Of a DNA stretch of 64,000 nt, positions 8,877 to 56,438 are shown piece by piece. The first letter of the stretch is position 1; the number at the start of each line of letters is the position of its first letter. The position numbers were made by a program, and so were the translations under genes. Below the pieces are notes generated by a model. It saw nothing but the letters and a program-made list of their open reading frames with translations. It was not told the DNA's origin and did not search any database. The DNA comes from Akkermansia muciniphila (GTDB lineage Bacteria; Verrucomicrobiota; Verrucomicrobiia; Limisphaerales; UBA9464), in contig CAMDGV010000011.1 of the NCBI GenBank assembly GCA_945898055.1, positions 668 through 64,667 of the forward strand. The letters are read 5' to 3'.

Positions 8877-9290
8877 TCATCGGGCGACTCGACGTGTAAC
8901 GAGACGGATCGCCTTCCAGGGATCGAACTGATTCTCTTCAGTCCAGTCCCTGGAAGTGGCTTCGCGCGTGGCCCGGCCCCTGGACCAGACCTGCTTGAAG
9001 GCCTTGGAAAGACGCCGAAAGATCCCCAAGACACAAGCCGTGTTGGGTTGTCGCACTCGGCTTTCATCCTCGCGCTGGGTTATGTCCAATTGGTAGGAAT
9101 TTGCTTTTTGAGGCGGAGTTTAAGAAGCCGATGATTGGCTCTCTGCAGAACGCGGCGCATTTCAGCCAAATTGGATTCTACAGCGTTGAGTTTCTCGAAG
9201 TGGGACTTTGAGCGTGCGTCGATGATCTGGGCCAGGGTGGTCTAATCGGTTCCAGGTAGCCCGAAGAAGATGCGAGACTAGATGCGGTCG
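8877..9290 (-). pseudogene. Decayed rarA/mgsA-like AAA+ ATPase fragment
   Basis: The minus-strand reading gives IFFGLPGTD*TTLAQIIDARSKSHFEKLNAVESNLAEMRRVLQRA, a Walker A (GPPGTGKTTLA) region broken by a stop. After a frame change it gives VLGIFRRLSKAFKQ (compare ILFIDEIHRFNKAQQD) and TEENQFDPWKAIRLVTR (compare TTENPSFELNSALLSR). The segment is GC-rich relative to its flanks. Confidence 0.55.
9094..9118 (+). repeat. Island-boundary repeat, copy A
   Basis: TAGGAATTTGCTTTTTGAGGCGGAG matches the plus-orientation core of copies B-F (ATAGGAAATTGCTTTTTGACGTGGAG). Confidence 0.6.
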
Positions 9291-9293
9291 ACA

Positions 9294-9962
9294 TCAATGG
9301 CGCGGCGGAGCAGGAGACCCGGGGCCAGAAGATGCCGCCGGCCAGCCTAGGGTGGCACGAGCCCGCTGCACCACGCCAAAGAAGCGTTCCCGCAGGTCGG
9401 CAAAATTGTCCGTGGTTTCGAAATAAATCGGTGCGCTCTGGGCCGTGTGGATAAAATCACTTGGCAGGATCTTATCGGCAAAACGGATCTTCAAACACCA
9501 GCCCTTCAACCTATTTTGATCGCCAGTGCCGTGCTTGACGTGGGGATCGAAGTAAAGCTCCGTGCCCACGGCGTCGCCCAACCATTACAATGAGCGGAGT
9601 TTGAGGCCACTGTTGTCGAGGCGACCCAGCAGCAACTTGTAGCTCCCCGCCCGGGTATCGTCGGGGACGATCTCGATGATTTCGAAGCCGTAGTAGACCC
9701 GAAGTTGCTGGTGTTCCTCATCGTGGTAGACGGTGAGCAGGGGATTGCGCTGATCGGCGCCGAGGATCAATTGACCGGAGGGCGGCAGGGGTGCCGAGCG
9801 GGCTGATTTCGACGCCAAATGGCGATCCGAAGCGGCAGTCTGAATCGAAATCACCGGCTCGGTCGGTGCCACCAGCGGGGGGTGGCACCGCAGCGACCAG
9901 CCCGGGAAACAAGTCGCTACTTTCGTCGTCTGGCATTCGTCACGGTAAGTCTGCCTACGCAA
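9294..9962 (-). pseudogene. Unknown-function reading frame interrupted by an in-frame TAA
   Basis: ORFs 9585..9962 and 9294..9581 are in the same frame and are separated only by the TAA at 9585-9587 (reverse complement). The continuous reading is ...GRLDNSGLKLRSL*WLGDAVGTELYFDPHVKHG... I do not recognise the family. The segment is GC-rich. Confidence 0.4.
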
Positions 9963-10226
9963 AAATCGCTCAAAGCTCAGGGATTTGAACTCGCATCTGA
10001 TTCCTAGGCTTTACCCCCATTCTTCTGAGATCTGAGGTTGAGTGAGTTCAGATTAAATCGGCAAAATGAGCAAACGCTTCGGGAATGGAAACGACTCGAG
10101 ATCACAATCGTAGGCGTTCAAACCGGGTAAAGACCCCTGCCTTTTGATTTCGATCACTCGTAACTGAGCCAATCAGAGGGCAGAACCAGAGTTGTTCTCT
10201 GACCTAACTCAGGCCAACATCCGTCT

Positions 10227-11237
10227 ATGGAGTCCAATTGGAAACCACTGAACCGCCCTAGACGTCTTCGCCAAACGCAGGCTCTTCGTGACCTAAATCG
10301 AGAAGTTCGACTCAATCCCTCCGATCTCATCGCTCCTCTCTTCGTGACCCTTGGCGACAACCCTCCCGAACCCGTCGCCTCGATGCCGGGGGTCTTTCGA
10401 CTTTCTATGGATGATCTTCTCCGAGAATGCCGTGAACTTGCCGGATTGGGGATCCGCGGCGTCGCTTTATTTCCGGTCATTCCTCCGGCCCTAAAAACTC
10501 CCAATGGCTCAGAAGCTTTAAATCCAAAGGGATTTATTCTACAGGTCATTCGAGCCGTCAAAGATGCTGTGCCTGAATTGGTGGTCTTTACGGATATAGC
10601 CTTAGACCCGTACACAACTCATGGTCATGACGGCGTTTTGAATAGCCAAGGGACTGATGTGGACAACGACAGTACCGTAGAGATTTTACGTCAACAGGCG
10701 GTACTTCATGCTTCGGCTGGCGCAGATTTTGTCGCTCCCAGCGATATGATGGATGGTCGGGTGAAAGCGATTCGGTTAGCCTTGGACGCCGCCGGATTTG
10801 TCAATACAGGAATTCTTGCCTACAGCGCCAAATTTGCCTCAGCTTACTATGGACCTTTCCGCGAAGCCGTGGGCAGCGCTCAGGCAGCGGGCACCCGTAA
10901 ACTTGATAAGCGAACCTATCAACTCGACCCTGCCAATCCGCGTGCGGCCATTGCTGATGCCCTTCTAGACGAACACGAAGGTGCAGATGCCCTCATGGTT
11001 AAACCAGCTGGCCCTTATTTAGATATTCTAGCCTCCCTCCGACGGGAGACTCTCCTTCCCCTTGCCGCTTATCAGGTGAGTGGCGAATACGCCCAAATCC
11101 ACGCAGCAGCCCGCGCCGGGTGGCTTGATCTCGAAGCAACCCGCAACGAAAGCCTACTAGCCATCAAACGTGCTGGAGCCGATTGGATCCTGACTTACTT
11201 TGCCCGCGATATGGCCCTTGCCCTCCGGCAGCACTGA
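10227..11237 (+). CDS. hemB: Porphobilinogen synthase (delta-aminolevulinate dehydratase)
   Basis: RPRRLRQTQALRDLNREVRLNPSDLIAPLFV N-terminus. Active-site regions are SDMMDGRV and MVKPAGPYLDI. 336 aa. Confidence 0.95.
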   Translation: MESNWKPLNRPRRLRQTQALRDLNREVRLNPSDLIAPLFVTLGDNPPEPVASMPGVFRLSMDDLLRECRELAGLGIRGVALFPVIPPALKTPNGSEALNPKGFILQVIRAVKDAVPELVVFTDIALDPYTTHGHDGVLNSQGTDVDNDSTVEILRQQAVLHASAGADFVAPSDMMDGRVKAIRLALDAAGFVNTGILAYSAKFASAYYGPFREAVGSAQAAGTRKLDKRTYQLDPANPRAAIADALLDEHEGADALMVKPAGPYLDILASLRRETLLPLAAYQVSGEYAQIHAAARAGWLDLEATRNESLLAIKRAGADWILTYFARDMALALRQH

Positions 11238-11249
11238 TTCGGAGATTAC

Positions 11250-11300
11250 TCAAAAGAAAAACGGTATCGGGAAATTCTTTTCACGATACCGTTCTCTTCT
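11250..11300. terminator. Bidirectional hairpin terminator between convergent hemB and the FKBP gene
   Basis: Perfect 10-bp stem AACGGTATCG (11260-11269) / CGATACCGTT (11284-11293) with a 14-nt loop. A T-rich run follows on the minus strand (TTTCTTTTGA) and CTCTTCTTC follows on the plus strand. Confidence 0.65.
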
Positions 11301-11318
11301 TCAGAACTTTTTCGATGA

Positions 11319-12293
11319 CTATTTTGGAGCGGCAGGGCTCTTCTTCGGGGCCTTAGCTTCTTGCTGAAGCCGTTCGGCATCGGAAGCTTTGATTACTTCG
11401 ATTTTTGCCCCTTTCTTTAAATCCTCGGCACTCGGCACTCTGATAATATCACTCGTCACCACTGGGCTGGGAGCCGCAGGGGGCGGAGGACGAATGCCGA
11501 CTAATTCTACTTCGAATACGAGCGCTGAACTAGGAGCGATCTTGGGCGGTGACCCGTTCATTCCGTAGGCTAGTTCAGAGGGAATCGCCAGCTTGTACTT
11601 AGATCCTACAGGCATCAACTGGAGCGCCTCAGTCCAACCCCGAATGACTCGAGTCACCCCGAAGGATGCCGGTTCGCCTCGGGAATAAGAACTATCAAAT
11701 TCTGTTCCATCAATGAGTGTACCGCGATAATGAACCTGAACGGTGTCATTGGTGGTTGGCTTGGCACCGGTACCTTCCTTCATAACCTGATATTGAAGTC
11801 CACTGGCGGTTACCTTAACCCCTTCCTTCTTTTTATTTTCAGCTAAGTAAGCTTCACCAGCGGTCTTCGCTTTCTCGCCATCAACCTTGCGTTTCTCTTC
11901 CATCTTCTTCCGGATTTCTCCACTATAATTTCGGAGAATAACGTTGGCCTCGCCGTCGGTAATTATCGTTGTCTTACCTCGGAGGGCTTCAGAAAAAGCT
12001 CGGATTACGACCTCCGTGTCATTCTCGTACTGACCACGAAGAAGCTGACGTTTAAGATCCCCGGCGAGCAAAACACCCATCGCATAGCTGTTCTTTTCGA
12101 GATCGGAAGCAAACTTTCCTGCCCCCGGATCAACCGCGGCAGGTGCAACGACTGAGCTAGCCGCCGCTTTTTTAGCCGCCGTTGGATTAGCCACGGGAAT
12201 AGGAGTCGCCTTGGGACTCTGGGCCAGTGCAACACTAGAAAAAAATCCAGTGGCAAGGATAAATGATACGAACGCAGAGGATACTGGTTTCAT
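11319..12293 (-). CDS. FKBP-type peptidyl-prolyl cis-trans isomerase (FkpA/Mip-like, secreted)
   Basis: Signal peptide is present. The C-terminal FKBP domain reads VQVHYRGTLIDGTEFDSSYSRGEPASFGVTRVIRGWTEALQLMPVGSKYKLAIPSELAYG. Confidence 0.9.
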   Translation of the reverse strand: MKPVSSAFVSFILATGFFSSVALAQSPKATPIPVANPTAAKKAAASSVVAPAAVDPGAGKFASDLEKNSYAMGVLLAGDLKRQLLRGQYENDTEVVIRAFSEALRGKTTIITDGEANVILRNYSGEIRKKMEEKRKVDGEKAKTAGEAYLAENKKKEGVKVTASGLQYQVMKEGTGAKPTTNDTVQVHYRGTLIDGTEFDSSYSRGEPASFGVTRVIRGWTEALQLMPVGSKYKLAIPSELAYGMNGSPPKIAPSSALVFEVELVGIRPPPPAAPSPVVTSDIIRVPSAEDLKKGAKIEVIKASDAERLQQEAKAPKKSPAAPK

Positions 12294-12631
12294 TGGAAGT
12301 TCTTAATTCTCTCTAATATCGGAGCTTCTCTACGGGCGCTGCCGTATGGAATTTTCAAACTTAAAGAGAAGATTCGGTCAAAGTCGAGCCTTGGAAAAAA
12401 AAACGACTTAAAAAGAGCGTCACCCTAAAAGAGGGCAGCCTTTCAAGGAACCTCCGGAGTTCGCACCGACCTGCCATCGGCTCGTCTCTTTGTCATTCGC
12501 TGAACATGAACCGATTGTTCCATCTTGAGCTCTGAAAGCGGCTGCCCCCTAGGATTGAGTAGCCAAGGGAGGCTCGCCGAATTCAGATCTAGGGCGCTCT
12601 TCTCCCTAAAAGTAGTCTTTAACTGCAAAGG

Positions 12632-14167: not shown

Positions 14168-14411
14168 AATGAAATTGATCTTGAAAGAATCACATTCAAT
14201 CTGTCCAGAGTCATCGATAAATCACGGTCGCTTAATCGAGTGAAATTGATCGCTGGTGCCCAAAAACCTTGCCCGCTGGGGGCCGAAAGGGTCGCTGAGC
14301 AGTCCCCGTGGACCTCACTAAAACCCGCCTTGTCTGCGATTAGATCTACGGGGAGTTACAGAGTTGAGTTAACTTCTCGACCCAGTGCCCACGTCTCGTA
14401 TTCTCTCTTAA

Positions 14412-15062: not shown

Positions 15063-15256
15063 CTGCGCGCCTTTATCTCTCAAGAAACTGGGTAATGCCC
15101 GATTTCGATGGTGCGGTGCGTGACAACCAAAGTCACCCACCTTCAAAACTTTTGCCTTTTACCGCTTTTTATCCCCGCGGTTTAATTTAACAACGGCGAG
15201 CTTTAACCTCAGGGTTATCATTTGAGATTAAAGCGCCGGCTTTCCGGTGGAAGGCC

Positions 15257-16033: not shown

Positions 16034-16074
16034 AGGTCGAGGATCAGGGAGGGGAGGCCTCCGTGCAAAGCTAA

Positions 16075-16623
<549 letters not shown>

Positions 16624-16626
<3 letters not shown>

Positions 16627-16665
16627 TTATTGATAGGAAATTGCTTTTTTGACGTGGAGGGAAAA
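16624..16665 (+). repeat. Island-boundary repeat, copy B (left end of island; inverted partner of copy C)
   Basis: TAATTATTGATAGGAAATTGCTTTTTTGACGTGGAGGGAAAA. Its first three bases are the coaD TAA stop. Confidence 0.8.
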
Positions 16666-16749
16666 AAAGAAACTATTTGGACGATTGCACGCTTAGCCTC
16701 GACGCTCCTCGCCGAAATGCCCTAACTAGGCACCCTCAGTCGCAGTGAA

Positions 16750-16990
16750 GCCGGCCTGAGCGGCCTCGCGCCCTACAACCGGGACAGCGGCGTGCACAGC
16801 GGACGCCGCACCCCTACGGTGGCTGCCCGCAAGTGCGCCGGGTGCTCTCGATGGAGGCCCTCGGCGCGGCCGCTTTAACCCGATTCTGAAAACGTTTTAC
16901 GACCGGCTCGTAGCCGACGTCAAAGCCAAGAAAATCGCCCTCATCGCCTTCATGCGCCTCCTAAAGAACCCAAAATTTAAGTTCGCCTGA
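16750..16990 (+). mobile_element. IS110-family transposase C-terminal remnant (frameshifted, no N-terminal catalytic part)
   Basis: Reads AGLSGLAPYNRDSGVHSGRR..., then after a frame change RFNPILKTFYDRLVADVKAKKIALIAFMRLL. This matches the conserved IS110 C-terminal pattern LAGLAPFNRDSG...NPVLKAFYQRL...GKPKKVALVACMRKLL. The segment is very GC-rich. Confidence 0.65.
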
Positions 16991-17037
16991 AAGACCGTTG
17001 CTGGCCCACTGGACCCAAGGTCTGACGACCGCCTTCA

Positions 17038-17078
17038 TTTTCCCTCCACGTCAAAAAGCAATTTTCTACTAATAATTA
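17038..17078 (-). repeat. Island-boundary repeat, copy C
   Basis: TTTTCCCTCCACGTCAAAAAGCAATTTTCTACTAATAATTA. Its reverse complement matches copy B over about 41 nt, with a few substitutions and one T-run length difference. Confidence 0.8.
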
Positions 17079-17233
17079 GAATGGTTAAAGGAATGCGCGC
17101 GTGTTAAGAAAACACTCCGAATTTTTCCACCCGTGTCCGGCTGTTGAAGAATAGCCTGCGCAGGGATGGCGAAACCTGCAACCTACTTGAATCCGGTCTC
17201 GAAATTTATCCGCCACTCATTACATACTTACCC

Positions 17234-18700
17234 ATGAATCTCCGGCGTGACCTCCCAGCCTCCCTTGTCGTCTTCCTCGTCGCTGTGCCGTTGTCCCTCG
17301 GCATCGCCTTTGCCTCTGGGGCACCGATCATCGCGGGTCTGATCGGTGCGATGGTGGGCGGGATTGTTACAGGACTGCTTGCTGGGTCACCGCTTCAAGT
17401 TTCGGGTCCAGCGGCCGGCCTGACCGTCGTCGTGGCGGGGTTGGTCGCTCAATTTGGCTGGGAGACGATGTGTTTGATCACGGCTTGTGCGGGGGTGATT
17501 CAGCTTTTGTTGGGTTGGTTCAAGGTGGCACGCGGGGCTCTGATCATTGCGCCGGCCGTCGTGCATGGCATGCTGGCGGGCATCGGCATCTCCATCGCGC
17601 TGGCGCAGATTCATGTGGTGCTCGGCGGTTTGCCGCAGAGTTCACCGGTGGTGAATCTACTCGGTATTCCGAAGCAGCTCGGTCTGGTGAATACGCAGGC
17701 GGCGATTCTTGGTTTGCTGACCATCGCCATCCTTATCATTTGGAAGAAACTTCCCTTCAAAGCCATCCCAGGACCGCTGGTGGCGGTGGTGGCTGGTACG
17801 GTATTGTCCATCTTGATGAAAATGGACGTGAAGCGTGTGGATCTACCGGAGACCTTCGAGTTGACCAAACTAACACCGCCGGAGCATTGGGGGCCGTTTA
17901 TAACCGCGGTCCTGACGGTGGCGATCATCGCGAGCATCGAGTCCCTGCTCTGTGCGGTGGCCACGGACAAGTTGCACAGCGGTGTACGTTCGGATTTGGA
18001 CAAAGAATTGCGGGCGCAAGGCGCGGGAAATCTCGTCTCCGGCCTTCTCGGCGGCCTGCCGATCACGGGTGTGATCGTGCGATCCTCGGCAAACATCATC
18101 GCGGGTGGTGTGAGCCGTTGGTCGGCCATTATCCATGGCGTGTGGATTCTGCTTTTCGTGCTGTTTGCCCGCAACGTGATCGAATCCATCCCGCTGGCCG
18201 TGCTGGCTGGCCTGCTGGTGCATGTCGGTATCAACTTGGTGAATCTCCATCACATCAAAGAGCTGACGAAGCACAATGAGATCCTCATCTACTGGGCCAC
18301 GGTGCTCGGTGTGACCTGTGCGAATCTCCTCGCGGGTGTCGGCATCGGTGTGGGCCTCAGCGTTTTCTTCCTGCTGCGTCGTCTTTCAAACACCGACGTA
18401 AAAATGGCGCAACGTGACGGAAAATGGCAGGTGAAGATCGGAGGCACGCTCACGTTTGCCTCCGTGCCAAGGCTGAACGCCGAACTCTCGAAAATCCCCG
18501 CCGGTCACCCTGTCGAGATCGATCTCGCGGTCGATTTCATCGACCATGCGGCCTTTGAATCGATACACGGATGGCGTCAAAATCACGAAAAGACCGGTGG
18601 CCCTGTCGAGATCGATGAAACGCACGAGCAATGGTACAAGCCCGCCCAAGCGGGCACGCCACGCCAAGGAAAGTCTCTGCCAGCGGCAGCTAAAACCTGA
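17234..18700 (+). CDS. SulP-family anion transporter with C-terminal STAS domain (candidate bicarbonate transporter)
   Basis: N-terminus LVAVPLSLGIAFASGAP, many TM segments, and a C-terminal STAS-like segment KWQVKIGGTLTFASVPRLNAEL...VEIDLAVDFIDHAAFESI. The ATG at 17234 is preferred over the TTG at 17144. Confidence 0.88.
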   Translation: MNLRRDLPASLVVFLVAVPLSLGIAFASGAPIIAGLIGAMVGGIVTGLLAGSPLQVSGPAAGLTVVVAGLVAQFGWETMCLITACAGVIQLLLGWFKVARGALIIAPAVVHGMLAGIGISIALAQIHVVLGGLPQSSPVVNLLGIPKQLGLVNTQAAILGLLTIAILIIWKKLPFKAIPGPLVAVVAGTVLSILMKMDVKRVDLPETFELTKLTPPEHWGPFITAVLTVAIIASIESLLCAVATDKLHSGVRSDLDKELRAQGAGNLVSGLLGGLPITGVIVRSSANIIAGGVSRWSAIIHGVWILLFVLFARNVIESIPLAVLAGLLVHVGINLVNLHHIKELTKHNEILIYWATVLGVTCANLLAGVGIGVGLSVFFLLRRLSNTDVKMAQRDGKWQVKIGGTLTFASVPRLNAELSKIPAGHPVEIDLAVDFIDHAAFESIHGWRQNHEKTGGPVEIDETHEQWYKPAQAGTPRQGKSLPAAAKT

Positions 18701-18706
18701 TTTAAC

Positions 18707-21700
18707 ATGTCTGACGCGGACCAGCACCTTACCCATCAGATTCAGCATGCCGCGCATCTGCTACCGGCGCAGGGGCCAATCGGGGTGTTCATCCATCACA
18801 ACACGCTGCATGCCTTTGAAGATCAGACTTTTGATGAAGCGGTACGCACGGGGTCAAAGGTGTTTGGATGTCAGCCGTATCTTTCGGAGGATCGCTACCG
18901 CGAGGAACTGACGCGCGGGCGCATCCGCTTTGATGAACTGCGCGCGGTTTTGGAGCGTGATCTGGGTGAAATGGCGACAGTGAGCGTGCATGGCCTTTCA
19001 CGGCGGCTCGATCTGCGGTTGGCCATGCTGCAGCATCCGTTGCGCAGCGGCGACGGCCGTGAGCTTGACTGGTTCATGGCGGAAACGGACGCGCTGCTGA
19101 AGGCTCGACGCGATGTCTCCGAGGTTGAGAGGCGGCGTTTAATTACTGAGACACGACATTGGGTCATGCGCAGATTGCGCGGATCTCTGCCTGATGTAGA
19201 GCGGCCCGCATGGATTAAAGATCTGTTTCTACGCTTCAAAGAAACACGCATTGAGGACTGGCATGATGAACGTTGGGAGGCTTTCACGATGTCGGCGCTC
19301 TGGGAGGTTTGTCGGGAAGGGGTACGCCTCGCGGGTGAACATACACCAGCAGCGAAGCCGCTGATCCGTCATCGTGATCTGCTGAATGCTCACGGAGGCA
19401 TGGACAGCGATTTGCTAGTGAATGACGTGCTCATCCGCTTTTGCGCCTCCTTCCTCGATCAAGGCATCGCTCACTGGGCGCTACCGGAGCGTGATGCAGG
19501 CTTTTATGCGTCGTTTTGCTCGCTGCATAGCCAAGGGGACATCACTTCGGCGTGGTGGATGACAGGTGTGCGCCGCGAGATGCAGCGATTGCAAAGTGAG
19601 AAGGTCAGCGCCCTCGAGTGCCTGCATGAGTCGTTGGCTGCACTGGGCGTGAAGACGGATGAAGTCGAAGATTTCCTCTCGGCCACGCTCCTGGCCCTGC
19701 GTGGCTGGGGTGGCATGATCTGGCATGTGGAGCAGCGTGCAGACCGCGTGCATCATGCGGTGCCAGAAGGCACGTTGATCGACTTTTTGGCTGTACGGCT
19801 TTTGTTGGAGCGGTTCGCCGTTCCGGCGGCAGCGGGCAGTTCCATGGGTTACAAAGGCCCGCTCACTGAAATGCGCGAACAATTGGCCGCCCAGATCCCG
19901 TCCGCCCAGCCGAACTGTGATAAGCAACGTGCCTTTCTCGTGTTTCAGTTAGCGCAAGTGCTCGGCTGGACGCCCGCTCAGTTGTTTCATCTTACGCTGG
20001 ACTCGTGGGTGGAGTTGTTTGATGAAATCGAAGGCTTCACCGAGTTGGATCGACGCCGGGTGTTTCATCTGGCCTACGAGCATCGTTTCCGCGTGCAGAC
20101 GATGGATGCGCTGGCTTCACGCAGTGGGCGCAGCGTCAAACCCAAGGAGCGTCCGTCGTTTCAGGCGGTGTTTTGTATCGACGAACGTGAAGAGTCGATC
20201 CGCAGGCATGTCGAGGAGGTCGCGCCGACCGCAGAAACCTTTGGCGCAGCGGGTTTCTTTGGAGTGGTGATGTACTATCGCGGTGCAGCAGCAGCGGACT
20301 TCGTGCCACTGTGTCCAGTCGTGGTGCGGCCGCAGCATTGGGTGTCTGAGGTTGTGGATCGTCGTCTGCTCGATGAAGAAAAGCGCCGCAGCGGCGCACG
20401 CCGTCGTCTGGGCATGGCGCTGACGAGTTTTCACGGCGGCAGTCGTCGCATCGTGAGTGGTGCGTTCTTATCCGCGACGATCGGCTTGCTCGCTACGGTG
20501 CCGCTCGTCGCGCGCGTGGTTTTCCCGCGACTCACCGCCCGGTTTCGAGGTTTCTTCGGCAGCTTCATCGCGCCGTCACCCGTTACCCGGCTCAAACTAG
20601 AGCGCAGTTGCGAGAAGGCATCCCACGCAGATGAGGCGCACGGTTTCTTGCCGCAAGAAATGATCAACATCGCCGAGCGCATCCTGCGTGACATCGGCCT
20701 CACCAGCGGTTTTGCCCGCGTGGTGTTCGTCTTTGGTCACGGCTCCACCAGTATGAATAATCCCCACGAGTCGGCGCATGACTGTGGGGCCTGCGGCGGT
20801 GGCGTGGGTGGGCCAAATGCGCGTGCCATTGCTGAGATGCTCAATGATCCGCGCATTCATACAGCCTTAAAGCCGCGCGGCATCCAGATCCCCGCAGACA
20901 CCGTTTTCATCGGTGGTCTGCACAATACCGCGAACGACAACCTCACCTTCTCCGACGTGGATCGCGTGCCGCAGACGCATCAGTTCGAGTTTGAAGTGGC
21001 GTGCAAAGCCATGAACGAGGCGGTGGAGCGGAATGCGCACGAGCGTGCCCGCCGCTTCGGCTCCGCATCACTCGGACTCACGCAAACCGCAGCGAAGCGC
21101 CACATGGAGGGCCGGTCCGAAGATTTATCTCAAGTGCGGCCCGAGTGGGGCCACGCGACGAACGCCATCTGCATCGTTGGTCGTCGTGAAAAGACGCGCG
21201 GGCTGTTCCTCGACCGCCGCGCCTTCCTCGTGTCTTACGATCCGGAGCAAGATGATGCGGAGACGGCGATCCTGGCCCGCATCCTCGGTGCGGTGGTGCC
21301 GGTGTGCAGCGGCATCAATCTGGAATACTATTTCTCCTATGTGGACTCACCCGGCTGGGGCAGCGGGTCGAAGCTGCCGCACAACATCACCGGCCTGCTC
21401 GGCGTCATGGATGGTGCCATGAGTGACCTGCGCACGGGGTTGCCCTGGCAGATGGTCGAGATTCACGAGCCGGTGCGATTGCTCTTCGTCATCGAAACGA
21501 ATGCTGCGGCCTTTTTGGCGATCATGGAGAAGAACGCTGCGATCAAAACGATGGTGACCAAGTTGTGGGTGCAGGTCGCGCTGATGGATCCAGCCACTGG
21601 AGCGCTCAGCCTGTATCAAAATGGTCAGTTCGAGCCCTATCAAAGCCACGCGGGTCCGCTACCGGTCGCTGCGTCATCCAAGGAATGGTACACCGGTTGG

Positions 21701-21742
21701 AGAGAGCATCTGGAGTTCGCTGAAATCAAAGCCGCCGCGTGA
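18707..21742 (+). CDS. dabA: DabA / DUF2309 family protein (inorganic-carbon pump, beta-CA-like subunit)
   Basis: N-terminal LLPAQGPIGVFIHHNTLHAFE. CIDERE supplies Cys490 and Asp492. GHGSTSMNNPHESAHDCGACGG supplies His678 and Cys693. This is the family's Cys/Asp/His/Cys zinc-site pattern. 1011 aa. Confidence 0.88.
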   Translation: MSDADQHLTHQIQHAAHLLPAQGPIGVFIHHNTLHAFEDQTFDEAVRTGSKVFGCQPYLSEDRYREELTRGRIRFDELRAVLERDLGEMATVSVHGLSRRLDLRLAMLQHPLRSGDGRELDWFMAETDALLKARRDVSEVERRRLITETRHWVMRRLRGSLPDVERPAWIKDLFLRFKETRIEDWHDERWEAFTMSALWEVCREGVRLAGEHTPAAKPLIRHRDLLNAHGGMDSDLLVNDVLIRFCASFLDQGIAHWALPERDAGFYASFCSLHSQGDITSAWWMTGVRREMQRLQSEKVSALECLHESLAALGVKTDEVEDFLSATLLALRGWGGMIWHVEQRADRVHHAVPEGTLIDFLAVRLLLERFAVPAAAGSSMGYKGPLTEMREQLAAQIPSAQPNCDKQRAFLVFQLAQVLGWTPAQLFHLTLDSWVELFDEIEGFTELDRRRVFHLAYEHRFRVQTMDALASRSGRSVKPKERPSFQAVFCIDEREESIRRHVEEVAPTAETFGAAGFFGVVMYYRGAAAADFVPLCPVVVRPQHWVSEVVDRRLLDEEKRRSGARRRLGMALTSFHGGSRRIVSGAFLSATIGLLATVPLVARVVFPRLTARFRGFFGSFIAPSPVTRLKLERSCEKASHADEAHGFLPQEMINIAERILRDIGLTSGFARVVFVFGHGSTSMNNPHESAHDCGACGGGVGGPNARAIAEMLNDPRIHTALKPRGIQIPADTVFIGGLHNTANDNLTFSDVDRVPQTHQFEFEVACKAMNEAVERNAHERARRFGSASLGLTQTAAKRHMEGRSEDLSQVRPEWGHATNAICIVGRREKTRGLFLDRRAFLVSYDPEQDDAETAILARILGAVVPVCSGINLEYYFSYVDSPGWGSGSKLPHNITGLLGVMDGAMSDLRTGLPWQMVEIHEPVRLLFVIETNAAAFLAIMEKNAAIKTMVTKLWVQVALMDPATGALSLYQNGQFEPYQSHAGPLPVAASSKEWYTGWREHLEFAEIKAAA

Positions 21743-23106
21743 CCATGCCTGTCCTCGAATCCTTTCTCTCCACACTCGGGCTACTCATCGTCGCCGCACC
21801 CGTGCTGCTGCTCGCCGTGTTCTTTGGTACCTTTTTGACCCAGCGGCGACTCCAAGAGGCCACCATTGGCACCCTAGTCCAAGGCAGCATCGGCTTCAGC
21901 CTACTGTCCGCCGTGGGGGCGGCTGCCACCATGCTATGGCACCGCGTGGCGCAGCACCCCATCGAGCTGGGAGATTGGGTGATCACGCCGCACTATCATT
22001 TGAGTTTCGAGTTCGTTCTCGATCTGCTCTCACTCTCTTATGTGATGCTCACGCTCGTCTTGTGTGCCGTGATCGCGGCTTTCTCCACGCGCTACCTGCA
22101 TCATGAGCGTGGCTACAATCGCTTCTTCGTACTGTTTGCTCTCTTCCTACTTGGGATGGTCACAGCATCGCTGTCGGACACGGTGGAAACGCTGTTTGCA
22201 GGCTGGGAAATGGTGGGGCTATCCTCCGTGTTGCTCATCGCATTCTTCCAAGAGCGGCCCGCGCCGCCGCGCAATGGTCTGCGGGTGTGGGTGGTCTATC
22301 GCATCTGCGACGTGGCGCTGCTACTTGCTGCCATCTTGATGCATGAAATCAACGGTGCGGGTGATTTCGACCATCTCGTGGGCAAAAGCGCCTGGCCTGC
22401 ACACGATCCGCTGCTCATCGGTCCGCACTTCACCATGCTGGGAGTCCTCTTCATCATTGCCGCAGCGGGTAAATCTGCCCTGGTGCCTTTCTCCGGTTGG
22501 CTGCCGCGTGCCATGGAGGGCCCGACGCCTTCAAGTGCGGTGTTTTATGGGGCACTCAGCGTGCATCTCGGCGCGTTTTTGCTGCTGCGCGTGAGTCCGG
22601 TCCTGGACAGCTCCATCTGGCTACAAGTCGCTGTCGTGGTGCTCGGCTCTACGACGTCTGCCTTTGCCTATCTCGCCGGTCGCGTGCAGACGGACATCAA
22701 ATCCGCACTCGCCTTTGCCTCACTGACTCAAGTCGGACTCATCATTTCCGAAATCGGCCTCGGCTTTCGCTACCTCGCGCTCTTGCATCTACTCGGCCAT
22801 GCCTGCCTGCGCACGCTGCAATTCCTGCGCGCACCCAGCTTGCTGCACGATCATCACCAACTCGAAAACGCCATTGGCAGTCGGCCGCGTGAGGAAGGCG
22901 TGATGTGGGAGCAACGCTTGTCGCCGAAGATGCAGCTCTGGCTTTACCGCTTCTCACTGGAGCGCGGCTATCTCGACACCCTGCTCGAAAAATTCGTCGC
23001 ACGTCCGTTTGTCGCGCTGTTTCGCGGCTTAGACGAGTTGGAGACAAAATGGGCTAAACTGCTTGATGGCGAGTCCAAGGCGAAGGAGGCGCCGCGAGAC
23101 CAATGA
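21739..23106 (+). CDS. dabB: NuoL/MrpA-type proton-conducting antiporter-like subunit (DabB-like)
   Basis: Canonical PF00361-type segment FSGWLPRAMEGPTPSSAVFYGALSVHLGAFLLLRV and about 12 TM segments. The GTG start overlaps the dabA stop (GTGA at 21739-21742). An in-frame ATG at 21745 is an alternative start. Confidence 0.85.
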   Translation: MTMPVLESFLSTLGLLIVAAPVLLLAVFFGTFLTQRRLQEATIGTLVQGSIGFSLLSAVGAAATMLWHRVAQHPIELGDWVITPHYHLSFEFVLDLLSLSYVMLTLVLCAVIAAFSTRYLHHERGYNRFFVLFALFLLGMVTASLSDTVETLFAGWEMVGLSSVLLIAFFQERPAPPRNGLRVWVVYRICDVALLLAAILMHEINGAGDFDHLVGKSAWPAHDPLLIGPHFTMLGVLFIIAAAGKSALVPFSGWLPRAMEGPTPSSAVFYGALSVHLGAFLLLRVSPVLDSSIWLQVAVVVLGSTTSAFAYLAGRVQTDIKSALAFASLTQVGLIISEIGLGFRYLALLHLLGHACLRTLQFLRAPSLLHDHHQLENAIGSRPREEGVMWEQRLSPKMQLWLYRFSLERGYLDTLLEKFVARPFVALFRGLDELETKWAKLLDGESKAKEAPRDQ

Positions 23107-24428
23107 TCGATTTTTCTTGGCTCGGAGTCACTTTACTCTTGCCACTGCTCGGGGCGGTGGTCGCGGTGTTCCTCAAAGTGCCCGCTGTGGCCATGCGGGT
23201 GAGTTTGGGCTTCTTCGCTGGCACTCTGATCACGGCTACAGCGGCCAATCTGACCTTTGCAGGCCCGAAGCTCGCGTGGCTGAACCATTTCGCTGTCGAT
23301 GATCTCGCCGCGCCGATGCTGCCTGTGTTGGCGCTGCTGCATCTGCTCACGCTGCTTGGCACGGCAAAGTCGCGCGTGTCGCCGATGTTCTGTGTTCGTC
23401 TATTGATCGCGGCATTCGTCAGTCTCGCGGCTGTGACATGTCAGACGCCGGCCATACTCATTGCGCTGCTGGTGCTCGGCGTGCTGGTGCCGCTGTGGGA
23501 TCTGATGAGCCGCGGCCAACCCGTGCGCGGTTACTTGATCCATATGAGCTTCTTTGTCGCGCTGCTCGTGACTGGTTGGCAGTTTGTAGGTCAAGACATC
23601 GGCTATGGCCTGCTACTGATCGCGCTGCTGCTGCGCGGCGGCATCGTGCCACTGCATGGCTGGCTACCCACGCTTTTTCAAGGTGCTGCGTATGGTACGG
23701 CGATGGTCTTTGTGCTGCCGCTGATGGAGGTACTGGCCGCGCTGCGACTGCTACTACCCTCCACGCCCGAGTGGATGCTGAATGCAGCCGGCGTCGTGTG
23801 CCTGATCACAGCTGTGTACGGCGGCGGCATGGCCATCGTGCAAAATGAGGTGCGGAAGTTCTTTGCTCATCTCTGCCTCAGTCAGACTGCGCTGGTGATG
23901 TTCGCCGTGATGCTGCACACCTCAAACGGCCTCACCGCTGCGCTGTGTTTGTGGATTTCCTCCTCGCTGGCTCTCGCAGGTCTCGCCTTCTCGGTGCGTG
24001 CGTTGGAAGCCCGCTTCGGCCCGCTCTCATTGCGAGAATTTCACGGCTTCTACGAGCAGGTGCCCGGCTTGGCGATCTGCTTTCTGATGACCGGACTCGC
24101 CAGCGTAGGGTTTCCAGGGACCATCGGCTTTGTGCCGATGGAGCTGCTCATCAGCGGCAGCGTCGAGCAGGGACTCGGGGTCAGCCTCACCTTAGCTATC
24201 GCCGCCATGCTCAACGGCGTCGCCATCATGCGTGCCTACTTCGCGCTCTTCACTGGCAAACGTCCCACGACCTCCGTCTCGCTGCAAAAGACACCGATGG
24301 AACGTGCTGGCATCATCCTCATCGCGCTGATCGTTTTTCTCGGCGGATGGTTCTCACCCGGCATGGTGGCGTCACGCCATCACACGGCTGATCGGTTGCT
24401 GGACCGGGTGCTTGTGGAGACGCGATGA
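23103..24428 (+). CDS. Second, divergent antiporter-like (NuoM/N/MrpD-type) membrane subunit
   Basis: Polytopic membrane protein with an ATGA overlap onto the preceding gene (23103-23106). The homologous segment HGWLPTLFQGAAYGTAMVFVLPLMEVLAAL keeps the WLP framework but lacks the PTPxSA core. Confidence 0.7.
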   Translation: MIDFSWLGVTLLLPLLGAVVAVFLKVPAVAMRVSLGFFAGTLITATAANLTFAGPKLAWLNHFAVDDLAAPMLPVLALLHLLTLLGTAKSRVSPMFCVRLLIAAFVSLAAVTCQTPAILIALLVLGVLVPLWDLMSRGQPVRGYLIHMSFFVALLVTGWQFVGQDIGYGLLLIALLLRGGIVPLHGWLPTLFQGAAYGTAMVFVLPLMEVLAALRLLLPSTPEWMLNAAGVVCLITAVYGGGMAIVQNEVRKFFAHLCLSQTALVMFAVMLHTSNGLTAALCLWISSSLALAGLAFSVRALEARFGPLSLREFHGFYEQVPGLAICFLMTGLASVGFPGTIGFVPMELLISGSVEQGLGVSLTLAIAAMLNGVAIMRAYFALFTGKRPTTSVSLQKTPMERAGIILIALIVFLGGWFSPGMVASRHHTADRLLDRVLVETR

Positions 24429-24431
24429 GGC

Positions 24432-24710
24432 ATGCCCCCTGGCCCGGTTGCATTATCTCCCCTCAAGGGAATGGGTTTTCGAGAGGTGAAGATGGTTCTT
24501 GAGAGCAAGTCCATCACGCCTCCTCACAAAGTAATGTCGCATCCTGCCGAGCCCGCCTTCGTTCATCCGATTACAGCCTCGGTGGTTGGCTACCTTCCGT
24601 ATCCGCCGAAGCGCAAGAAGCCGCTCGCGAGTGATCTGCGGATCGCGGAAAAGGCCAAGAAGCCTGCGATCTTCACGCTCGACAATCTCCGCCGCGATGC
24701 GCTCGACTGA
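24432..24710 (+). CDS. Hypothetical 92-aa ORF directly after the dab operon
   Basis: It starts 3 nt after the preceding stop and has no recognisable motif. The opposite strand is also open over this stretch, as expected in GC-rich DNA, so coding status is uncertain. Confidence 0.2.
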   Translation: MPPGPVALSPLKGMGFREVKMVLESKSITPPHKVMSHPAEPAFVHPITASVVGYLPYPPKRKKPLASDLRIAEKAKKPAIFTLDNLRRDALD

Positions 24711-25119
24711 TCGATCACCGGCCTTATCGCAGTGCCGCTGACGGTGGGGATCTGCCTCAGGTCGGAGGATTCGATCGAGACAGGTTTGATGACGGTGCTG
24801 TTCGCCTTTGTGGCAGTTTCATCACGTCCTTATTCCGTCGAGGAAACTACGTCGTCGTCCCCGGAGTCGCCGATGGACTAGCGCCCGTGCTGGCGATAAG
24901 CGTGCATAAATTTGGCATGGAGAACAGGCCGCTTCTGATCTTCCTCACCTCGCTATCACAAGCTGTCGGGTGGAAGTTTAACCTCCAGCCCCCCCAAAAA
25001 AACTCAGACACTAAAAGCTAGATCGCCACAAAAACTAATCGCCGGGCGCATTGACAGCTTATCTTCGAGGAAAGTAAAGTGTTAGGGCAGTAGTACAAAG
25101 CCCCATTTGCCTTTCTTGG

Positions 25120-25146
25120 CTCCACGTTAAAGCGATTTCCTATCAA
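25120..25146 (-). repeat. Island-boundary repeat, copy F
   Basis: CTCCACGTTAAAGCGATTTCCTATCAA matches the core of copies C, D and E. Confidence 0.65.
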
Positions 25147-25543
25147 TGACTTTATTCACACTTGTCGGTTTTTGGAATCAGCTCAGGAGACGTCGAGGCT
25201 CATCCCAACCCGGACTCGATGGGTCCAGTCGGCACCAGCCTGCTTCGGCGGCGATCAAGCAGGCACCCCGCTTCTCGCCCGTGGCCATCGTCCGGATGAC
25301 CTACCTAGGCCTAGGTGTGTGTTTTGCATTTTTTTTCGCAAACGGGTGGAACCAACGCAAACCCGAGGGAACCTGGTTTCCACGGGGCATTTCCGATACG
25401 ATTCAGCTGCTACAACTACGGGGTGGCGAACACGTTGGGAAATCTGATAGGATTTGACGACTTCACTCCTTCAGACGTTTCGAGAGCAATGAATGACGCA
25501 GCCAAATATATGACAAGTGAGACTGTTTCGCCTTCGCTTTTCG

Positions 25544-25585
25544 CCTCCACGTAAGGGCAATTTCCTATGAACCAATTTCCTATCA
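25544..25585 (-). repeat. Island-boundary repeat, copy E, plus a partial duplicate of its inner end
   Basis: CCTCCACGTAAGGGCAATTTCCTATGAACCAATTTCCTATCA. CAATTTCCTAT occurs twice, at 25558-25568 and 25573-25583. The glycosyltransferase ATG (25567-25569) overlaps the end of the repeat. Confidence 0.65.
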
Positions 25586-28500
25586 GTTGTTCAGTTACCG
25601 AACTCGGACTCCCCGTCCGCTGGTTGGCACCGATCTTCAACCCCAGCGGGTATGCCAGCGAGGCCATCAACTTCGTGCTGCCGTTGGAAAATCGCTGCAC
25701 CTTGGGAATCAATCATAAAACTAACGTCTATTCTGAGGGCTTCACCCGAGGCCTGCCGTCCGCTGACCGCGAGGCGCTCTTTCGGATGCGCGACCGGTTT
25801 GAAGGAATGAGTGGCGGCATTGTCGTCTTCCACAATCCGGCCGGCGGCTTCATCCGCCTTCCTGATGCCGACTACAGCATCGGCCGCACAATGTTCGAGA
25901 CCGATCGCATCGCACCCGAATGGGTTGCCGCCTGCAACCGGATGGATGAGGTGTGGGTACCCTCGCAGTTCAATCTTGAGACCTTTGCCGCCAGCGGAGT
26001 CGAACGTTCGAAATTGGTGGTGATTCCAGGTGCGGTGGATTCGGAGTTTTTCGATCCGGCCCGGCATACGGTCTACCCGTTGCCCAGCAAGGCCCGGTTC
26101 AATTTTCTGTCGATTTTCGAGTGGTCCTCCCGCAAGGGCTGGGACGTGTTGTTGGCTGCTTATTTGCGGGAGTTCTCGGCCGAGGACGACGTGTGCCTGT
26201 GGCTGCGCACCTACTTGTTCTCTAAGCCCGACGGGGATCCGACCGAGGCGATCTGGCAACGGATCCGGGCGTTCACCGCATCGTTGGGTTTGGAGGGTAA
26301 AAATCTGCCCCGGATCGAACTCATTGCCGATCAGGTGCCTAGCGCGCAATTGCCGGGGTTATACTTGGCCTGCGACTGCTACGTGGCTCCAAGTCGGGGC
26401 GAGGGCTGGGGACGCCCGCAACACGAGGCCATGCTTATGGAGCGGCCGGTCATTGCCACCAACTGGAGTGCCAACACCGAGTTCATGTCCGAGAAGACCA
26501 GCTACTTGCTGAACTATGAAGTGGTCGAAGCGCGCGGTCTCGAACCCGAGCTCTGGCACTACAAGGGGCACCGCTGGGCCAATCCTTCCGAGACCCACTT
26601 GCGATCGCTGATGCGCCGGGTGTTCACCCATCCGGAGGAAGCCCGCGTCAAGGGCCAGGCGGCCCGCCAACACATGGCCCGCCACTACAGCCGGGAGGCC
26701 GTGGCTGACCAGGTGACGCACCGGTTGCAAGTAATCGAGCGCTCGTTGCTCTCACCGCAATTGCCACCGGCACGGGCAATCGATCTCCATGGATCGGACG
26801 CGACGAACTCCCCCATGTCAGCAGGACCTAACGCAAGGCCTAACGCCACCCTCACCGTGTCACTGGAAGGATCCTTCCTCGACCTAGGTTCTCTCTCGCA
26901 TGTGAATCGCTCTCTGATCCGGGGCCTCAACCAAGAGCCCCGGTTCCGAGCTGTCGCCGTCTCGACAGACACCACGACGGCCAATCCCAATTCCCCGGAT
27001 CTGAAGGGTTGGTCTCAGCGAGTGCAGAAGCGCTCCCCCTCGGACACCGCGATCACCCTACGTCACGACTGGCCGCCGAACTGGCGTCGCCCGGAATACG
27101 GGGCATGGGTACTGATCCAGCCTTGGGAATTCGGATCCATCCCTGCCGAGTGGGCGACCGAAGCCCTGAATGTAGATGAGATCTGGTGCCCCAGCCGCTA
27201 CGTCCGGAGTTTGTACCTGCAGGCGGGTATCCCGAGGGAAAAACTCCGGGTGCTGCCCAACGGCTACAATCCCGCGATTCACCATCCCGGAGCCGCACCC
27301 ACGCCCATCGCCACGAGCAAGCGCTTCAAGTTCCTCTTCGTCGGCGGAACCATCGCTCGCAATGGATCAGACCTGTTGTTGGAGACTTACCTGAAAACCT
27401 TCCGCCGTTCCGACGACGTGTGCTTGGTGATCAAGGACTTCGGCGGCAAATTGGCCTACCGGGGGCAGACCTTGTCCGAGCGAATCCAAGCGGCTCAGAC
27501 CGACCCAGCAGCACCGGAGATCGTGTATTTCGATCAGGAGTTGTCCGAGCACGACCGGGCCGGGCTCTACACCGCCTGCGACTGCCTGGTGCACCCTTAC
27601 CGCGGCGAGAGCTTTGGACTCTCGGTGCTTGAGGCGATGGCCTGCGCGCTGCCCGTGATTTGCACCGGGGGCGGTTCCACCGACGATTTCGCTACCGATG
27701 AGTTCGTTCATCGCATCCCGGCCACTCGGGAATTTGTCGGCAACGAAGTGGACGGTCTGAAACTGGACCATCGAGGCTGGTGGTTGACCCCAGATCCGGA
27801 TGCTTTGGGCCTAGCCCTCCGCGCAGCCGTAGAACAAGCACCGCAGTGGAGGCAACGAGCCCACCTAGGCTCCGAGCATGTGGCCGCCCATTGGACCTGG
27901 AAAAACGCCGCACAAACCGCCGCCCGTTTTGCTTGGGAGTTGGTGGCCCGCCGCACAGCCCAGATGGAAGAGAAGGCTCGCCTCGCGCGATCGAAGCGTC
28001 CGTTGACCTTGCCCGAGGTTTCCTTCCAGGGAGATCTGCTAGCCGCCAGAAAGGCCTTCCAAACGAAGAACATCCCGGACGCTTGGCGACTGGCCTGCAC
28101 TGCCATTGAAGAGCGTCCCTTCCACCCAGAAGGATGGGTCTTCTTGAGCGAGGTGGCTGTCAGCGCGGGTCATCGGGCCCTAGCCCGCCGTTGCGCCCAG
28201 AAGGCCGTCGCTCTGGCACCCAACTGGAAGCCAGCTCTGCGGCAACTCTCCAGCATTACCAGTGGGGCCGACAAACCCACGGTCGAATTGAGCGCCCCCC
28301 CGTTGCGCGAAGGTTTGGCGCCACGCCTGTCGGTCTGCCTCATTGCCAAGAACGAGGAACGTTTCCTCGACGGCTGCCTCCAATCGATCCGCGGCTTGGC
28401 CGATCAACTCATTCTGGTGGACACCGGATCCACGGATCGAACCGTGGAAATCGCCCGCAACCACGGGGCCGAAGTCCATTTCCGAGCTTGGGACCACGAC

Positions 28501-29937
28501 TTCAGTGCCGCCCGCAATGCCGCCCTGCTGCACGCCCGCGGCGACTGGGTCTTGATCCTGGATGCCGACGAAGAAGTCTCCCCGGCGCAACACGTAGCGC
28601 TGCGTGCGCTCCTGACTCGACCCAACGCGATCGCTTACCGGTTGCCCCTGGTGGACGTCGGTCGCGAAAGTGACGGCGTCAGCCAGGTGCTCCGCCTGTT
28701 CCGCAACGCGCCGCAGCAGTTCTACGTAAGCCGGATCCAAGAAAAGGTGCACACCAGCCTCGAACTGAACCGTGAGAAGTGGAGGATGGAGAACCTCTTC
28801 GGTGACGCACAACTCATCCATTATGGCTCCCAAGCCGAAGTCATGAAGAGTCGGGACAAGGTCCAGCGGAACCTCCGCCTCTTAGAACAAGCCAACGAGG
28901 AACACCCCAACGACGTCAACCTGCTCATGAACCTCGGACTGGAACTTTGGCGATCCGGTCAACACTTCCACGGCATTGGGTACTACCAGCAATCCTACAC
29001 GGCCATGCTGGAGCAACCCTACGCCCAGACACTCCCGGAGTTGAGGGAAGTCCTGCTCACCCAGTACGCTTCGCTCCTGTTGAGCCTCCAACTCTACAAA
29101 GACGTCATCACCCTCTTCCAAGACCAAGCCCTTGCGCCCAAGGCCCGCACGGCCTCGCAGCACTTCATGATGGGGTTGGCTTATTCCGCACTTCAGAACT
29201 GGGAGCCCTGCGTGACCCATTTTCAGCAATGCCTGAAATTGCGGAACCAACCAGCACTCACTCCTATCCATCAGGACATTCGAAGTGCAACCCCGGCCCA
29301 CTGCATGGCTCATGCCCTGCGAAAGCTCGGGCGCAAGGTCGAGGCTAAGAATGCTTATGAACAAGCCCTTCACGACGACCCTCTCAATGAATCGGCGCGG
29401 GTAGAGTTCGCAGTTTTCGAGGCAGAGGAGGGCCAGATTGTTTCAGCCCTCACCCTGCTGCACGCGGGCATCCAGCAGAACCCTATGCAGGCCAAGGTCT
29501 GGGAGGCGGGTGGAGCCCTTTCGCTCCGCCAACGCGACACCCTGGAGTTCGCTCTAGACTGGAGCGGCGAGGCCCTCAAGCACCTGCCCGACCACGCCAC
29601 CTTGCAGCGGCAGCGGGCGGAGGTCCTCTTGCTGAACGGGCAGGCCCACGAGGCCCTACCACTCTGGAGCGAGATGTCACGGTCCAACGATGCGGACAGT
29701 TCCTCCGGCCTCATCCTCTGCCGCCTGTTCGCAGGCGAGTCGCAGTCGGCCGTGCCGCCGGACCGCGAAATGGCCATCAGCCAAGATCTAATCCGGAGAT
29801 ACCGACAGGCGGTGGAAATGGGCCTCGACGCTTGGGTCCACGCCTTGCACCAGCGGGTCGATACTCTTCGTCAGACACTGCCCTCGGCTGCTCGCTTCAT
29901 TGATTTGGTGGTCGCCGAGTCCGGCCCAGAAAAGTGA
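25567..29937 (+). CDS. Multidomain glycosyltransferase: GT4-like, GT4-like, GT2-like, then C-terminal TPR region
   Basis: First GT4 signature: [30 protein letters not shown]. Second GT4 signature: [32 protein letters not shown]2 signature: [21 protein letters not shown]...[10 protein letters not shown]...ILDADEEV. A long TPR-like helical repeat region follows. 1456 aa. Confidence 0.85.
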
Positions 29938-29993
29938 TCAGCCAAATTGCCTATGAAACCCCTAAATCCGCCCTGCCTCCGGCTTCTTTCCCA

Positions 29994-30030
29994 TTTCTCT
30001 CCGCGTCAAAAAGTAATTTCCTATTAATTT
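29994..30030 (-). repeat. Island-boundary repeat, copy D (right end of island)
   Basis: TTTCTCTCCGCGTCAAAAAGTAATTTCCTATTAATTT. The HAD gene stop (reverse-complement TAA at 30024-30026) lies inside it. A partial inner-end-like copy CAAATTGCCTATGAAACC lies at 29943-29960. Confidence 0.75.
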
Positions 30031-56402: not shown

Positions 56403-56438
56403 GGAGGCTTACAAATATAAATTTCAGACAGAAGATTC

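Follow-up and report, generated by a model that had tools for sequence, protein, structure and literature searches.

A non-palindromic repeat at the edges of foreign DNA in a PVC-type chromosome, tentatively read as the end of a mobile element

Our analysis concerned a family of short repeats in a 64-kb stretch (hereafter the window, to which all coordinates refer) of contig CAMDGV010000011.1, assembly GCA_945898055.1, recorded as Akkermansia muciniphila, in which six copies lettered A, B, C, F, E, and D were found. The repeat is real, non-palindromic, and located at the edges of foreign DNA. We tentatively favor, while giving it somewhat less than an even chance, the reading that the repeat forms the ends of one family of mobile DNA segments, the transposase or recombinase of which would be encoded outside the window and would probably act in trans. 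This reading is preferred because strain junctions lie at or near the outer ends of the repeat (exactly at D, 6-10 nt off at A), because an island of foreign DNA is bounded by inverted copies adjoining stop codons, and because individual copies decay neutrally yet are near-identical between distant lineages. A previous sequence-only reading of the same DNA had listed the terminal repeat of an uncharacterized element among its options, and the inverted copies bounding foreign DNA, together with the variants that break at the outer ends, make this option the favored one.

The six copies described in that reading were confirmed by direct inspection, in both position and sequence, and a six-copy nhmmer profile run on the window retrieved all of them at E values of 3e-7 to 3e-9. 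No seventh copy was found in the window (next-best match, E > 2), in agreement with the earlier statement that the ordinary backbone is free of copies. The earlier worry that the shorter copies A, F, and E were chance matches did not materialize; a profile built from B, C, and D alone recovered A (E = 5.5e-5), F (4.4e-4), and E (4e-3) next and, beyond these three, nothing in the window below E = 3. Loci outside the window, which are contigs or loci from metagenomes and genomes, are labeled L0xx here, and a profile from the single copy of L045, a different organism, found D, C, and B at E values of 5e-4 to 2e-3, followed by E, F, and A. Pairwise identity between copies was 73-90% over 37-42 aligned bases, and the probability that six random positions would fall within at most 20.9 kb of the 64 kb was 0.016. 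A protein search with translations of the repeat, made for spurious open reading frames (ORFs) over the copies, returned 6242 word-sharing candidates and none at E <= 10; the window and related loci had no Rfam match at gathering or E-value thresholds, and a literature search for the repeat sequence returned influenza primers and nothing else.

The repeat had been described as 25-42 bp long, which underestimated it; it extends over about 45 nt, with the consensus CGSCTTCnTTTTCCCTCCACGTCAAAAAGCAATTTCCTATCAAT when the copies are aligned in one orientation. Inside it, two direct 10-mers, TTTCCCTCCA and TTTCCTATCA, lie 23 nt apart and flank an A-rich spacer, and this spacer divides the copies into subtype I (A, B, C, and D) and subtype II (E and F). 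This arrangement of boxes suggests a protein-binding end. Two partial copies noticed earlier at 25573-25585 and 29943-29960 are present; each is an additional AATTTCCTATSA box, with 0 mismatches in the first and 2 in the second. DNA folds of the six copies and the L045 copy gave z-scores of -0.16 to +1.32, none of which beat shuffled sequences, bearing out the view that the core has no obvious dyad and is neither a repetitive extragenic palindromic (REP) hairpin nor an attC site.

The backbone of the window is that of a PVC-type (Planctomycetes/Verrucomicrobia-like) chromosome, with genes for DUF1501, a 1949-aa LTD/CotH protein, hemB, FKBP, FGGY kinase, a ParA-like ATPase, coaD, HPr kinase, and LptC. 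Two convergent genes, coaD and that for a HAD hydrolase, enclose between their stop codons (16626 and 30024) a 13.4-kb island of compositionally foreign DNA, with a GC content at third codon positions (GC3) of 0.68-0.74 in its genes versus 0.47-0.58 in genes outside, which holds in order an IS110-family remnant, SulP, DabA, two DabB-like genes, and a 1456-aa glycosyltransferase gene. This island is delimited exactly by the inverted copies B and D, whose CCTAT ends face outward, and the C-terminus of the HAD protein is of normal length although D overlaps its stop codon. B and C likewise form 42-nt inverted arms, 372 nt apart, so that both inverted pairs (B/C and B/D) bound foreign DNA with their outer ends outward. 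The B/C pair bounds a 0.45-kb unit resembling MITEs (miniature inverted-repeat transposable elements), into which an IS110 element was later inserted and then decayed, and A is a leftover end ahead of the DUF1501 operon. The GC-rich island is flanked by C and D as direct repeats (35 nt, 86% identical); F and E share their orientation, and the four copies part the DNA into blocks of 8.0, 0.4, and 4.4 kb, with the E module immediately upstream of the giant glycosyltransferase ORF. The earlier tie between the repeat and foreign-DNA junctions was upheld, by composition and by two population variants breaking at the outer ends of D and A, but its extension to every junction of foreign-looking DNA was not: no copy accompanies the low-GC block at 54.7-58.1 kb, and the positions of C, F, and E are internal to the island, not at its junctions with the backbone. 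The coordinates of the parts are collected in Table 1.

Table 1. Repeat copies, associated modules, transposase remnants, and cargo genes in the window
Feature	Position	Strand	Remarks
Copy A, subtype I	9089..9130	-	Outer end CCTAC faces the DUF1501 operon; profile search
Degenerate remainder of module, inward of A	9131..9334	-	Weak TTCGAGAAA block; missing from alleles L002 and L087
Remnant of unrelated insertion sequence (IS)	9335..10040	-	Large-transposase fragments, PF21804 Transposase_29 family, residues ~5-70 and 378-457
Copy B, subtype I, left boundary of island	16626..16668	-	Outer end 7 nt past the coaD stop codon (16624-16626)
IS110-family transposase C-terminal remnant and IS right end	16690..17009	+	PF02371; separate from the repeat
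Copy C, subtype I	17031..17076	+	Inverted relative to B, direct relative to D; 158 nt upstream of the SulP gene
Cargo 1: SulP transporter, DabA, two DabB-like genes (inorganic carbon uptake)	17077..24428	+	GC3 0.68-0.74
F module	25014..25158	+	A-rich stretch, sigma-70-like promoter, diverged leader, copy F (25106-25150, subtype II)
E module, degenerate tandem duplicate of F module	25452..25585	+	Copy E (25531-25575, subtype II), extra box 25574-25585
Cargo 2: 1456-aa GT4+GT2+TPR glycosyltransferase	25567..29937	+	GC3 0.74
Extra box AATTGCCTATGA	29945..29956	+	58 nt ahead of D's own box at 30015
Copy D, subtype I, right boundary of island	29989..30030	+	Outer end overlaps the HAD hydrolase stop codon (30024-30026)

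Among ENA/NCBI contigs, dozens match the window at 98-99.9% identity, one of them being k141_1480924 of ENA ERZ27280286 (99.9%), and the island is kept in most. Up to and including the HAD gene, the 60.8-kb contig L070 does not differ from the window; its divergence sets in at the first base of D's ATAGG, beyond which it carries unrelated DNA with neither the glycosyltransferase nor the D copy. L087 and L089 agree with the window over the giant gene and onward across the region upstream of DUF1501, as far as 9082-9088, a divergence point 6-10 nt outside A's CCTAC, and have no A copy, while L002 retains more of the PF21804-family remnant, followed by an EamA gene. These structures of L002 and L087/L089 indicate that the 250 nt holding A are missing from both alternative alleles (L002 and L087). 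Within the population, B and C were polymorphic at 6.5-7% of sites, compared with 5-17% in neighboring non-coding DNA and 0.4-2% in genes. Near-identical copies in distant lineages, combined with a polymorphism of B and C like that of other non-coding DNA, form the pattern that would be expected of relic ends derived from a conserved source.

Two alternative neighbors found among these strains deserve mention. At 6880-6988 of L070, 90 nt separate the HAD stop codon from the start of an ORF that opens with MASVMVMQGRELNTSDIEGICGFLQAHPEWNRTRLS and has no Pfam match on its 36 residues; the contig ends at this ORF, which suggests a multicopy element. At 12290-12365 of L063, the alternative left neighbor of the F module is a membrane-protein gene that continues, where the contig ends, into tandem repeats of 12 nt, (GCTGGCTCAAAC)n.

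Some copies belong to a larger promoter-plus-leader module, present at F, E, and A, which the sequence-only reading had overlooked. The F module carries a predicted sigma-70-type promoter (TTGACA-18-TAAAGT, 25051-25080), and F and the L045 copy are homologous over ~145 nt, sharing the A-rich stretch, the promoter block, and the repeat, with a diverged leader in between. The shared block reads TTGACA, an 18-nt spacer, and TAAAGT or TAAATT, each flagged by the promoter scan, and an exact 23-mer within it, ATTGACAGCTTATCYTCGAGRAA, is common to the F module, L045, L039, and L050. The outward promoter in the F and L045 modules supports the element-end reading, and the module as a whole suggests an outward-reading promoter. 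The module recurs at E as a degenerate tandem copy, A retains a weak trace of it, and B, C, and D consist of the repeat alone.

Outside the window, the module was also found in an unrelated freshwater planctomycete-like population. A pattern scan of JGI metagenomes gave 25 matches, mostly chance ones with random spacers, and the true homologues among them were nine loci of this one population (GC 0.55-0.59), all carrying TTTTCCCCTCCACGTCAAAAAGCAATTTCCTATCAGTG 13 nt before the start of a PSCyt/PSD gene that is followed by a DUF1552 gene. These freshwater copies are near-identical to those of the window (33/37 matches to B). The DNA at least 238 nt upstream of the repeat is hypervariable in this population, holding, by strain, a primase fragment with AbiEi and a generic tyrosine recombinase, a Y1 transposase with Fic, or a Y1 transposase alone. 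In GTDB representative genomes, a set that excludes the source genome, the pattern CTCCRCGTN{4,7}GYRATTTCCTAT gave 16 scattered matches, nearly all with random G+C-rich spacers and attributable to chance. The viral contig scan gave one match, a plasmid BLAST search gave nothing meaningful, and HAD homologues in relatives (64-70% identity) showed neither conserved downstream synteny nor a copy of the repeat.

A few further motif-like sequences were seen at these outside loci. L031 has a weak second copy (L031b, 2042-2095) immediately beyond the DUF1552 gene, opposite in orientation to the strong copy that lies upstream of the operon, with three boxes, TTTCTTATCAA, TTCCTATCGG, and TTTCTATCAG, at 10-11-nt spacing and a palindrome, TGGACACCAATCCGAT...ATCGGATTGGTGTCCGA, ~250 nt away. 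In the Akkermansia metagenome-assembled genome JAZLFB01, a ~340-nt non-coding element occurs at two loci (L011 55-400 and L019 2450-2820), opening with the subtype II-like GCTCCGCGTAAAGGTGATTTCCTATGC and continuing with several hairpins; it may be a true relative or a chance match. L037 has one further motif-like match, like the two in this Akkermansia genome.

If the repeat is the end of a mobile element, a protein would bind the two direct boxes, which are separated by about two turns of the helix and supplemented at some ends by extra boxes, and would join the CCTAT end to AT-rich DNA immediately beyond stop codons. A complete end would carry the sigma-70-type promoter ~50 nt inside, reading outward across the terminus into the DNA beyond it. 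The same-orientation copies C, F, E, and D might be joints of cargo blocks added serially at an existing end, or alternative right ends. Transposition of the element, and the enzyme that would move it, are likewise inferred.

Several observations weigh against the element-end reading. No transposase or recombinase with these ends was found in the window, the 90 loci, GTDB representatives, JGI metagenomes, or plasmids, scans outside which the source genome lies, and both transposase remnants beside copies belong to other elements. The sequence TAATTA stands on both sides of B/C as a possible target duplication, but it is palindromic, AT-rich, and possibly part of the repeat, and B/D have no convincing duplication. 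The ends are biased in orientation, four one way (C, F, E, and D) and two the other (A and B). Two sets of strain breakpoints fall near F and not at it: L063 and L064 keep F, E, the glycosyltransferase, and D and differ to the left of 24944, and in L061 and L073 identity drops at 24645-24689. The freshwater copy is stable in the 5' leader of the PSD/DUF1552 operon, away from the variable DNA described above, and conserved promoter and repeat blocks around a diverged leader would also fit a regulatory element.

Between B and C, the remnant takes the form of a pseudogene with PF02371 (IS110 C-terminal). By comparison with two relatives, its right end, ...GACCGTTGCTGRCCC, lies at ~17009, 21 nt before the extended C, and its left part (the 5' half and the non-coding, bridge-RNA-bearing left end) is deleted in the window; the close relatives found were fragments only. 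The remnant is situated between two complete inverted copies, neither of which is split. All other contigs with it represent the same locus in other strains, and multiplication of B-IS110-C as a MITE was rejected on this ground. The pseudogene has a 24-nt in-frame deletion at 16955-16956 relative to L003, L010, L059, and L060, which encode RKxLIxLNRLLKNP at this place, and no other part of the region is as polymorphic as the pseudogene. Its relatives L052 (~2436-2460) and L053 (~2454-2560) end in GTTGCTGACCC, followed in L053 by four tandem copies of GACCCGTTCTCTCCCTTC; another relative, P0004, lies beside two Y1 transposase genes, and a link between the IS110 group and Y1-associated repeats is possible.

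The decayed segment beside A is a second, unrelated transposase remnant. For its ORFs, the representative library contains 209 homologues at E <= 0.001, and the ORFs match the N-terminus and residues ~378-457 of 780-940-aa proteins in which PF21804 (Transposase_29) is combined with winged-helix domains. An intact relative carries terminal inverted repeats (TIRs) of its own, TCAGACCTCAGTAAAACGA, and the window has CTCAGATCTCAG at 10025-10036, a candidate left end where the end of the PF21804-family IS is expected. The repeat was therefore rejected as the TIR of this transposase, since the TIRs of the intact relative differ from it and the window retains the matching 12-mer. PF21804 is a little-known family, with N-terminal winged-helix domains in relatives, and its fragments differ by strain (window 9335-10040; L002 2310-2700; L079; L080). 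A Y1 transposase was rejected as the source on similar grounds, because the Y1 gene of L045 (4230-5168) is flanked by different TIRs, GGGGTCAGTTCTTGATATTG, of 19-20 bp and unlike the repeat. These match the GGGGWSAS TIRs of the "TIRtrons" (Di Nocera et al. 2013, PMC3733652). The IS200-like Y1 unit, at L045 4203-5220, is bounded by perfect 19-nt inverted repeats, GGGTCAGTTCTTGATATTG, as a TIRtron with the GGGGWSAS motif, and it occupies differing positions by strain (L043, L038, and L050), with or without the Fic gene.

Among the alternatives, we consider it unlikely, though worth weighing, that the copies are attachment (att) sites of a tyrosine recombinase, at which circular one-copy cassettes would have been integrated serially into a resident coaD/HAD copy. 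The direct array C, F, E, and D would then surround three cassettes (SulP-DabAB, the 0.4-kb piece, and the glycosyltransferase) read from the F promoter, loosely resembling an integron platform. The four direct copies and the blocks between them are well explained in this way, as are the direct C/D repeats around the whole island, its lack of a transposase, and the order of promoter, site, and genes in both F and L045. L045 also has a divergent tyrosine recombinase gene that was probably once ~300 nt from the module, because L050 keeps L045 12414-12565 beside 10493. However, A and B are inverted, the island has no integrase, and the site shows no dyad symmetry around a spacer. The L070 and L087/L089 alleles, which are replacements and not clean empty sites, are free of copies at the junction, where an empty attB should keep one, and the strain breakpoints at 24944 and 24645-24689 are away from the sites. 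The L045 recombinase is a single case, far below every NCBIfam cut-off (31 bits versus 265 for the integron integrase TIGR02249). A dif/Xer site was rejected from the sequence, as the second arm is missing and the GC skew keeps its sign.

The other alternative that we weigh, and also judge unlikely, is that the repeat is a cis-regulatory operator or 5'-leader element below a sigma-70 promoter, bound by a direct-repeat regulator; the modules would have arrived with foreign genes from a module-rich donor, and short dispersed homologies would promote recombination at the copies. The conserved promoter block and repeat of F and L045 around a diverged leader resemble a phylogenetic footprint, and C, E, A, and the L045 copy point at downstream operons 158, ~0, 395, and 13 nt away, respectively. 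The boxes are direct repeats, and the three boxes of L031b are spaced as for winged-helix regulators; moreover, the L045 copy is stable among strains. In contrast, B and D lack a promoter block and are directed into convergent genes at their 3' ends, the genes that follow the copies are functionally unrelated (carbon uptake, glycosyltransferase, DUF1501, and PSD), and ~30 other intergenic regions of the window are without a copy. B and C show no purifying selection, and the coincidence of two strain breakpoints with outer ends would not be expected of an operator. Readings of the repeat as a sigma-54, ECF, or sigma-28 promoter were discarded, as spacing and hexamers misfit the consensus sequences.

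Quite improbable, in our estimation, is that the repeat is the recombination site of an undescribed PVC cassette system, in which operon-sized blocks would be joined at a promoter-linked, non-palindromic site of direct 10-bp boxes by a recombinase encoded elsewhere, following an integron-like logic without attC hairpins or IntI. IS110-family elements are known to target repeats, and the sequence-only reading had proposed the repeat as the target of such a site-specific element. Apart from the PF02371 remnant between B and C, little fits this proposal, which we hold to be very improbable: the IS splits neither B nor C and ends short of the complete C, an IS110 lies close to only one of the six copies, the second IS adjoining a copy is of a different family, and every contig with the remnant comes from the same locus. 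That the shorter copies are chance matches, with only the B/C/D similarity real, is hardly credible; the 12-mer alone is only weakly enriched (10 matches versus 5.3 expected), whereas leave-out profiles recover A, F, and E at E values of 5e-5 to 4e-3 and nothing else, and F shares 145 nt with another organism. Both the IS110-target and the chance readings are effectively excluded.

Among known systems, the repeat resembles transposon TIRs and MITE-like or solo ends, with which it shares 40-45-bp inverted ends bounding inserted DNA (B/D and B/C), a host junction at the outer base, neutral decay of relics, and multiple protein-binding boxes; it differs in that no cognate transposase, clear target-site duplication, or intact element was seen and in its excess of same-orientation ends. 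ISEcp1-type elements (IS1380 family, with alternative right ends) similarly have an outward promoter just inside the end and cargo blocks bounded by several same-orientation right-end-like sequences, but no IS1380-family transposase and no 5-bp duplications were found here. The integron platform (Pc, attI, and attC cassettes) offers a promoter reading through a non-palindromic boxed site into blocks parted by further copies, and one related locus has the divergent tyrosine recombinase mentioned above; however, the copies have no dyad, no attC-like hairpin fold, and no GTTRRRY at their edges, no IntI was found, with the window lacking any recombinase, and the cassettes are operon-sized (4-8 kb) with some copies inverted. 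REP/REPIN elements and TIRtrons (Di Nocera et al. 2013, PMC3733652) are likewise short repeats dispersed over PVC genomes that also have Y1 transposases, and they sometimes occur as inverted pairs; our repeat has no stem-loop, the Y1 gene of the related locus is flanked by its own TIR, and no recombinase or Y1 gene was found among the window proteins.

Two blocks of the window merit separate description. The SulP and DabA/DabB operon (17234-24428) appears to have been horizontally acquired, as part of the GC3-rich island of a PVC-type chromosome, and DabB is represented in it by two adjacent Proton_antipo_M genes of 455 and 441 aa. At 54738-58145, two adjacent FG-GAP/ASPIC genes with a much lower GC content (0.44) and internal 1.7-kb repeats form a second, copy-free, foreign-looking block.

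The boundaries of the island were spotted from sequence alone, and strain-level variation later confirmed them. If the copies are indeed element ends, they would mark the route by which a marine PVC-type bacterium acquired the SulP and DabAB operon and a giant glycosyltransferase, and they would define a mobile-element family unrecognized by the libraries used. The 45-nt consensus and the 23-nt promoter block could serve as a probe for the autonomous element and for other islands in Planctomycetes and Verrucomicrobia.

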